Below are positions 9,367 to 9,687 of a stretch of DNA of 36,109 bases, one piece after another. Source of the DNA: a virus (Duplodnaviria; Heunggongvirae; Uroviricota; Caudoviricetes); the IMG/VR virus record IMGVR_UViG_641736116_000027, one strand, 5' to 3'. The position numbers and the translations under genes were made by a program. The notes beneath the pieces were generated by a model. The model made no database searches. It was given only the letters and a program-made list of their open reading frames with translations, and was not told the origin of the DNA. Numbering within the stretch: the first letter of the stretch is position 1; each line of letters begins with the position of its first letter.

Positions 9367-9433
9367 AAATCATATATTTTATGTAAATCTGATATTTTGC
9401 CAATGTTGTACGCACTGGCAGTAATCCAAATTC

Positions 9434-9470
9434 AAGCCCGAGGTTTAAAGCCTTGGGCTTTTCTGTTTCT
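9434..9470 (+). terminator. intrinsic terminator-like hairpin downstream of the Q-like gene
   Basis: 10-bp stem AAGCCCGAGG/CCTTGGGCTT with one G-U pair and a 7-nt loop, followed by the T-rich TTCTGTTTCT. Confidence 0.45.
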
Positions 9471-9545
9471 GAACGGTGAGTAGCCTTCCAACCTACCCCA
9501 GCCAGGGGGTCTTCAGCTGTTGAGTTGATATTGCTTAGCCCTCTG

Positions 9546-9573
9546 TTGCCAGCTACATGCTGGCTTTTTTATT
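9546..9573 (+). terminator. intrinsic terminator-like hairpin (candidate tR')
   Basis: GCCAGC-TACAT-GCTGGC followed by TTTTTTATT, located about 115 bp upstream of the holin start. Confidence 0.45.
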
Positions 9574-9687
9574 CCAGGCTTGTGGGGAGCATCAACTCCG
9601 TGCTTTGTCGTTAAATTACCCCGTGAGCCTGATTTCTGACATTTAACGTCCCGGCCTTTTGTCGGCGGCGAAACATTGGCTATTCAT

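Follow-up and report, generated by a model that had tools for sequence, protein, structure and literature searches.

The gap between the Q antiterminator gene and the holin gene in prophage Sp8 of Escherichia coli O157:H7 is probably a late switch, in which transcription starts at a late promoter pR′, ends in a first terminator (terminator 1) after a short leader RNA, is backed by a second terminator (terminator 2) and is carried through both by Q. The gap (9367-9687) lies in a stretch of viral DNA of 36,109 nucleotides (IMG/VR record IMGVR_UViG_641736116_000027), referred to here as the window, to which all positions refer. We base this reading on the elements themselves, their conservation, their covariation, their modular distribution and the homology of the leader to an RNA that has been detected. 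A preliminary description of the window had seen two tandem terminator hairpins between a Q-like gene and the holin gene, in what it took to be a lambdoid late regulatory region. Both points hold; the hairpins are where it placed them and are conserved with compensatory changes.

The window is prophage Sp8, adjoining icd. Excepting an insertion sequence (IS), it matches the sequence of strain Sakai at 99.96-100%, and 9300-9720 is identical to Sakai 1626340-1626760, within an Sp8 span of 1618292-1662679. The region is carried by 887 of 5426 complete E. coli genomes (∼16%). The gap runs exactly from the Q stop codon (9364-9366) to the holin ATG (9688), and RefSeq has no annotation inside it. The Q protein matches Pfam family PF06323 over its full length (residues 4-220 of 229, E 1.4e-94) and is 87% identical to the Q82-like protein of phage 434, while the 3′ end of the gene is 93.8% identical in DNA sequence to Q of phage 82. 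The Q gene of prophage Sp6 of Sakai is of a different type. The positions of the elements are collected in Table 1.

The late promoter overlaps the last codons of the Q gene. In a consensus scan it is the sole promoter-like site on the + strand between the Q and holin genes, and one of only two on that strand in 8000-11000; the stretch from terminator 1 to the holin gene, including the interval between the terminators, has none. The two hexamers and the spacer (AACTGGATTAAAA), followed by TGTAAATCTGATAT, recur in Gifsy-1 and in 80 viral contigs, and the same pattern is found in most loci of 27 other species of Enterobacteriaceae, a few of which differ in the spacer or the −35. Phage 434 likewise carries AACTGGATTAAAA and TGTAAATCTGATAT; its −35 is identical, its spacer nearly so, and its −10 differs by one base (TATATT in the window, TATACT in 434). 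The Q-binding element of phage 82 has been placed between the −35 and the −10 (PMC4914094), and we infer that the spacer at 9356-9372 holds the corresponding element. Transcription would start near 9382-9385; taking 9385 as +1, the start lies seven bases past the −10.

The TGATAT of the candidate pause element is invariant, or nearly so, among 28 distinct leaders, and phage 434 carries an equivalent (TGGTATGTT) with the same geometry. At pR′ of phage 82 a −10-like element in the initial transcribed region holds the polymerase at +25 (PMC4914094), and by analogy a pause is predicted here near +25, i.e. at about 9409. With a Q82-family protein upstream, a promoter with room for the Q element at the expected position, and a pause element, the region would appear to be a late region of the phage 82 type.

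Two further sites lie on the minus strand around pR′. At 9342-9355, TTGCAATATCTTGC is a perfect CII-type box (TTGC-N6-TTGC), opposite Q and overlapping the −35 of pR′. In the record of phage 434 the corresponding site is annotated both as a binding site for CII and as the −35 of paQ, the antisense promoter by which Q expression is lowered. The best sigma-70-like match of the region (9403-9376, TTGGCA-16-TAAAAT, 10/12) is directed back into the Q gene. It is probably fortuitous, because the common E. coli variants have an altered −10 (TGAAAT) and the −35 coincides with an arm of a leader hairpin (H1, below).

The RNA that would be made from pR′ has a plan common to the 28 distinct leaders, comprising the conserved 14-nt 5′ end, a hairpin at about +14 to +38, an A-rich linker and a strong terminator at +46 to +84. 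A hairpin at the position of H1 is present in 28 leaders, with at least four different stem sequences; the leader of phage 434 has no H1. The 86-nt leader of the window folds with a z-score of −4.05 against 200 shuffles. RNAalifold applied to a MAFFT alignment of the leaders gave a poor consensus because stems of differing sequence were misaligned, and each sequence was folded separately instead.

In a permissive scan (601-base search) 9382-9461 matches the Rfam family isrJ (RF01393) end to end, i.e. model positions 1-75 of 75, with 30.4 bits (E 0.0012) against a gathering cut-off of 37 bits. The true isrJ of Gifsy-1 scores 100.3 bits and lies behind the same promoter. Its 5′ end aligns with that of the window leader, the first 14 nt (UGUAAAUCUGAUAU) being identical. 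Leaders of related loci, given here as L numbers, score 72.7 (L092), 58.9 (L091), 41.6 (L093) and 36.6 bits (L088), and some are mosaics; L091 joins an IsrJ-type first hairpin to a terminator 1 of the window type, while L087 and L088 join a window-type first hairpin to an IsrJ-type terminator. Taking together the match, the synteny and the mosaic intermediates, we conclude that the window leader is a divergent relative of isrJ by homology, not by the Rfam cut-off.

A short terminated leader RNA like lambda 6S was one of the possibilities raised in the preliminary description. An RNA of this kind ending at the first hairpin agrees well with the relationship to isrJ, whose member in Gifsy-1 is an experimentally detected 74-nt RNA (PMC2330248). 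IsrJ is highly transcribed in 17 of 17 conditions in a lysogen without lytic transcription (bioRxiv 10.1101/787010), the pattern that a constitutive late promoter followed by a tight terminator should give. Short terminated RNAs from pR′ are known for lambda (6S), 21, phi80, 82 and P22, and StxS is a terminated late-leader transcript that acts as a small RNA (sRNA) (PMC7547250). We found no statement in the literature searched that IsrJ is a late-promoter leader. A role in invasion and a dependence on HilA have been reported for IsrJ (PMC2330248). The linker is not conserved, and therefore these properties are not transferable to the window leader, and no trans-acting role can be deduced for it.

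Terminator 1 has a stem of 12 pairs (AAGCCCGAGGTT-TAA-AGCCTTGGGCTT; six G-C, four A-T and two G-T), and not the 10 bp first assigned to it. At −17.8 kcal/mol it ranks second among the terminator-like hairpins on both strands of the whole 36-kb window. Every relative has it at +46 to +84, the stem occurring in at least five sequences; L026 shows a compensatory change of GAGG/CCTT to GAAG/CTTT. The most stable such hairpin of the window (7156-7128, minus strand, GTCACCGGAGTTGTTCAAGCTCCGGTGAC, −21.3 kcal/mol) lies in the nin region, upstream of a 151-aa gene at 7276.

Terminator 2 is GCCAGC-TACAT-GCTGGC (9548-9564), followed by TTTTTTATT. In the same ranking it comes about tenth (−10.7 kcal/mol), with a T tract (seven T in eight, tied) that is one of the richest in the top 25. 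By a rough estimate, the chance of finding two of the ten best sites on the same strand in a 130-nt stretch of a single intergenic region is ∼0.02. A GC stem with a U tract on the transcribed strand, and compensatory change at a fixed position, identify it as an intrinsic terminator in form. At least 15 versions of the stem are found at the same position ahead of TTT(T/C)TATTTCAGGC; three pairs show changes in both partners, and none of 500 shuffles gave as high a covariation score. Both hairpins are retained with compensatory changes in relatives of many genera.

Table 1. Positions of the elements of the late switch and of the adjoining genes in the window
Feature	Position	Strand	Description
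Q antiterminator gene, phage 82 family	8677..9366	+	229 aa; Sakai ECs_1620
Late promoter pR′ (predicted)	9350..9378	+	−35 TTGCAA 9350-9355; spacer AACTGGATTAAAAATCA 9356-9372 (17 bp); −10 TATATT 9373-9378
IsrJ-like late leader RNA (predicted)	9382..9470	+	∼80-85 nt; start 9382-9385, end in T tract of terminator 1; Rfam isrJ match
Candidate sigma-70-dependent pause element	9390..9398	+	Extended −10-like TGATATTTT; +6 to +14, hexamer +9 to +14, with +1 = 9385
Leader hairpin H1	9397..9421	+	UUGCCA ... UGGCAG; minimum-free-energy fold
Terminator 1 (tR′ equivalent)	9434..9470	+	Stem 9434-9460; tail TTCTGTTTCT
Upstream part of terminator 2 element	9493..9547	+	Small hairpin 9513-9528; conserved single-stranded stretch GATATTGCTTAGCCCTC 9527-9543
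Terminator 2 (pre-lysis)	9548..9573	+	Stem 9548-9553 / 9559-9564, then T6, ATT
Long-range stem	9575-9587 with 9619-9631	+	Directly 3′ of terminator 2; minimum-free-energy fold
Holin gene	9688..9993	+	Pfam PF16083, E 8e-22; annotated in Sakai (ECs_1621)

Terminator 2 is the end of a larger element. Upstream of its stem are a small hairpin with three covarying pairs, each changed in both partners, and a conserved single-stranded stretch; an outer stem of the element has no covariation support. The consensus of the stretch (GACAUUGCCUUACCCUCA / GACATTGCCTTACCCTCA) is present as an exact 18-mer in more than 120 viral contigs, and the window copy differs from it at four of 17 positions. Among the 103 contigs with enough flanking sequence to be counted, a terminator hairpin directly follows the stretch in 98, with three main types of stem, the motif that comes next is present in 86, and in 45 the end of a tRNA gene lies upstream at a distance below 70 nt. 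Five contigs share the tRNA-less layout of the window, the element lying 131-134 nt from the late start. It is found behind genes of the Q82, Q21 (PF06530) and Q-lambda (PF03589) types. Its upstream part is homologous to tRNA trailers in L092, L096, L100 and L103.

The two terminators are differently placed in relatives. Sequences diverge past terminator 1, and nearly all rejoin at a terminator with TTT(T/C)TATTTCAGGC, the long-range stem and the holin ribosome-binding site. Terminator 2 is at +167 in the window and at +159 (L108), +214, +238, +289, +296, +350, +366, +523, +688 and up to +1179 elsewhere. The intervening space is filled by tRNA genes (L092, L096, L100, L103) or by morons (mEp237, L101, L087). 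In L092 the first base of a tRNA-Asn gene coincides with the final base of the tail of terminator 1; the gene thus lacks its own promoter and should depend on read-through of terminator 1. From the variable spacing, the tRNA or moron fill and the three Q families we conclude that terminator 2 belongs to the tRNA/moron slot and the lysis side, not to the Q side. The two hairpins had been treated as one unit in the preliminary description. They are separate modules, which are only 87 nt apart in the window because no tRNA or moron lies between them. There are no tRNA genes anywhere in the window, and 9461-9500 was rejected as a tRNA remnant; its alignments to the tRNA regions of L100, L092, L096 and L103 were equalled by 54-418 of 500 shuffles.

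The pair seen in the window, i.e. terminator 1 with a motif-linked terminator 2, is present in 19 of 27 loci from other species. Most of the remainder, including the Gifsy-1-like loci, L090 and L095, show at least two terminators ahead of the lysis genes. This is not so for L103, which stops at a contig edge, or for L097 and L099, which have no terminator above the scan thresholds. As two or more are present at almost every related locus examined, tandem terminators are the norm for the family. The view that lambdoid late regions normally have a single terminator is thus not upheld for this group. Lambda itself, in addition to tR′, has a GC hairpin with a T-rich tail (GGCAGGAGGT...ACCTCCTGCC GTTTTGCC) some 125 nt ahead of gene S. 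Luk and Szybalski reportedly described tandem terminators of the lambda late operon in 1983.

We propose the following course of events, in which the steps past the sequence anatomy are drawn from the paradigm of phages 82 and lambda; promoter activity, pausing, termination efficiency and Q-dependent read-through are all inferred in this way, as would be any function of the leader in trans. Host RNA polymerase would start constitutively at pR′, copy the leader of ∼80 nt (5′ end, H1 and A-rich linker) and halt at terminator 1. The product in the lysogen should be a short, stable RNA that belongs to the isrJ family and corresponds to lambda 6S RNA and StxS. Polymerases leaking past terminator 1 would meet terminator 2 some 87 nt further on, at the end of the separate pre-lysis module that closes the tRNA/moron slot in relatives, a slot that is empty here. 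The two terminators together would keep the lethal holin gene silent; this gene is the first late gene shielded by both. The stronger insulation of the lysis genes that had been suggested for two terminators in series is plausible. On induction Q would bind between the −35 and the −10 and be loaded onto polymerase that has halted at the sigma-70-dependent pause near +25; thus modified, the polymerase would pass both terminators into the lysis and head genes.

Several observations weigh against this reading. The leader falls short of the isrJ gathering cut-off. The list of orphan Hfq-bound RNAs of Sakai (EcOnc) has no entry inside Sp8, although its filter, which dropped sites within 100 bp (≤100 bp) of a gene, excludes most of the leader; it does not exclude the terminator 2 element. 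In some E. coli variants whose Q and holin genes are the same, inserted AT-rich DNA has led to loss of terminator 2 (L044, L049) or of both terminators (L028, L039, L060). These losses indicate that the second terminator is dispensable, i.e. useful and not essential. Lastly, the conserved structure before terminator 2 and the long stem after it exceed what a plain backup terminator needs.

This last point leads to another possible role for terminator 2, namely that it serves chiefly to end a functional small RNA of ∼80 nt (9493-9570), processed from terminator 1 read-through or from late or tRNA precursors in the manner of the leuZ 3′ external spacer or of processed StxS, and acting in trans or on the holin leader. 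Such a role is compatible with that of a barrier. The element is built like an sRNA, with its covarying small hairpin, strongly conserved single-stranded stretch and terminator with U6; the 18-mer is kept exactly behind three families of Q, the element often comes directly after a tRNA 3′ end, and StxS is a precedent for an RNA processed from a late leader (PMC7547250). Against this, the element has no promoter of its own, a scan of 9471-9687 gave no Rfam match beyond chance, no Hfq peak is listed in Sp8 even though the element passed the distance filter, the outer stem does not covary, and the window copy departs from the consensus within the single-stranded stretch. Moreover the conservation could stem from recombination joints or from signals for tRNA 3′ processing. 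We therefore consider a small RNA as its main role to be rather unlikely. Identity with known RNAs was also sought; probes for PasA and PasB had no matches in the window at three or fewer mismatches, and no EcOnc coordinate falls within Sp8 (1618292-1662679).

The remaining alternatives concern the promoter and the nature of the hairpins. In the preliminary description the late promoter was tentatively taken to be TTGCCA-17-AGTAAT (9398-9426), from which transcription would start near 9433 with terminator 1 as an attenuator at the extreme 5′ end. Both hexamers are indeed present with a 17-bp spacing, but H1 is formed by TTGCCA pairing with the sequence that precedes AGTAAT, and the site is absent from the list produced by the consensus scan. 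Relatives carry other sequences there (e.g. CGTCGCC...GTCGAC in H1), without these hexamers, and so the site is not a promoter. A start at 9433 would also give a transcript consisting of the terminator only, with no pause element for the loading of Q. The conserved promoter, spacer and pause lie upstream, the promoter by 48 nt, and match phage 434 and Gifsy-1, where the 5′ end of IsrJ has been mapped (PMC2330248); we give this site virtually no credence. It is also very improbable that the hairpins are not terminators at all, being instead processing or stabilizing structures of the late mRNA or chance inverted repeats. RNase III is known to process the late leader of lambda (Daniels et al. 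1988, cited in PMC7547250), and the region is rich in other structure, with the stem of 9575-9631 and a z-score of −5.1 for the fold of the whole leader. Yet both hairpins have the full form of an intrinsic terminator, with a GC-rich stem passing directly into a T tract, the T tracts are kept while the stems vary by compensatory change, the homologous hairpin sets the 3′ end of the 74-nt IsrJ, and both rank high among the terminator-like sites of the window.

The switch with two terminators can be compared with known systems. Phages 82 and 434 share with the window the family of Q, an extended −10-like element of the same kind at +6 to +14 and an intrinsic terminator shortly downstream. However, their leader is shorter, lacks H1 and ends at about +30 to +55, whereas that of the window is of the IsrJ type and ∼80 nt in length; in phage 434 a gene for a membrane protein comes next in place of the terminator 2 module. 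IsrJ of Gifsy-1 resembles the window leader in its promoter, its two-hairpin layout and its position behind a promoter of the Q82 type, but the sequences of both hairpins and of the linker differ. In Gifsy-1, unlike the window, a C4/IsrK antirepressor module separates Q from pR′ and isrJ. We note that the inserted section (L003 1165-2050) comprises a P1-like C4 antisense RNA, the IsrK RNA and an antirepressor gene, that the last 17 nt typical of the end of a Q82-type gene (TTGCAAAACTGGATTAA) are retained ahead of isrJ, and that the isrK promoter (TTGACA-17-TATATT) occupies the usual place of pR′ at the end of Q.

Lambda 6S with tR′, and StxS, show the arrangement proposed for the window, with a constitutive late promoter, a short terminated RNA in the lysogen and Q-dependent read-through (PMC7547250). 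The Q family of lambda (PF03589) is nevertheless unrelated to that of the window, and the leaders, 194 nt in lambda and 247 nt processed to 74 nt for StxS, have no sequence similarity to the window leader. After tR′ of lambda (L114 990-1060) a long duplex is formed by CACAACAGGTAAGAGCATTG ... CAGTGCTCTTTCCGTTGTG, and this sequence also follows terminator 1 in L091 and L107, which are of the Q82 type. Thus blocks past the first terminator have been exchanged between phages with unrelated Q proteins. AgvB, AsxR, HnrS and PasA-D of enterohaemorrhagic and enteropathogenic E. coli occupy the same general slot between pR′ and the lysis genes (PMC4104026; bioRxiv 10.64898/2026.05.13.724894); AgvB, AsxR and PasA are convergent on the opposite strand, unlike the elements of the window.

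Directly beyond terminator 2, within the 5′ leader of the holin gene, the long-range stem has 12-13 pairs enclosing ∼30 nt. In 15 sequences 91% of cells are paired and four pairs are changed on both sides. The stem is found in 48 phage records, in none of which it is annotated, and is kept ahead of different holin families in phages of E. coli, Klebsiella, Enterobacter, Salmonella and others. A stem is also formed here by a second class of sequence (AGGCCGCAGAC...GTCTGACGGCCT). The long-range stem may serve as a processing site, or may stabilize the 5′ end of the lysis message.

Just before the holin start a further hairpin (CCGGC-CUUUU-GUCGG) lies within 9646-9690, and relatives have at this place a hairpin that overlaps the Shine-Dalgarno sequence. 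The holin gene has two in-frame starts, TTG at 9676 and ATG at 9688. The hairpin recalls the structure that sets the ratio of holin to antiholin in lambda S. The gap is followed by the holin gene, then by genes for lysozyme and Rz/Rz1, and by bor.

Elsewhere in the window, the insertion relative to Sakai Sp8 (3324-4633) holds an IS3-family frameshift pseudoknot at 3659-3775 (Rfam ALIL, 121.5 bits), showing that the early region of the prophage has, in this copy, received an insertion sequence. Close to the right-hand limit of the window, 35871-36069 is a full-length match to Rfam IS009 (229.5 bits). IS009 is listed among RNAs found close to PasB genes (2026 preprint).

The region is of an ordinary and well-understood kind, and the understanding of Q antitermination is unchanged by these findings. 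What they provide is a placement at base resolution of the late switch of a common O157:H7 prophage, i.e. its promoter, pause site, leader and both terminators, and the correction of a promoter assignment that was plausible but wrong. New here are the assignment of the leader to the isrJ family, by which IsrJ is read as a late-promoter leader, and the recognition of an unannotated pre-lysis module, independent of Q family, as the source of the second terminator. A further, rather unlikely reading is that the terminator 2 element together with the long stem that follows is an undescribed and widely conserved RNA module of enterobacterial lambdoid phages that does more than terminate. If that were so, the module would yield a stable small RNA derived from a trailer, like a tRNA 3′ external spacer, or would control the processing or translation of the holin message.

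The second pre-lysis terminator is a conserved and exchangeable module and not the quirk of one phage; it is unannotated in all the records examined. If the reading of the leader is correct, IsrJ, an sRNA of Salmonella linked to virulence, would be the terminated leader of a late promoter of the phage 82 type, with relatives in many Enterobacteriaceae. This would join IsrJ to the class of late-promoter leaders that includes lambda 6S and StxS, and suggests that such leaders are a recurrent source of prophage sRNAs.

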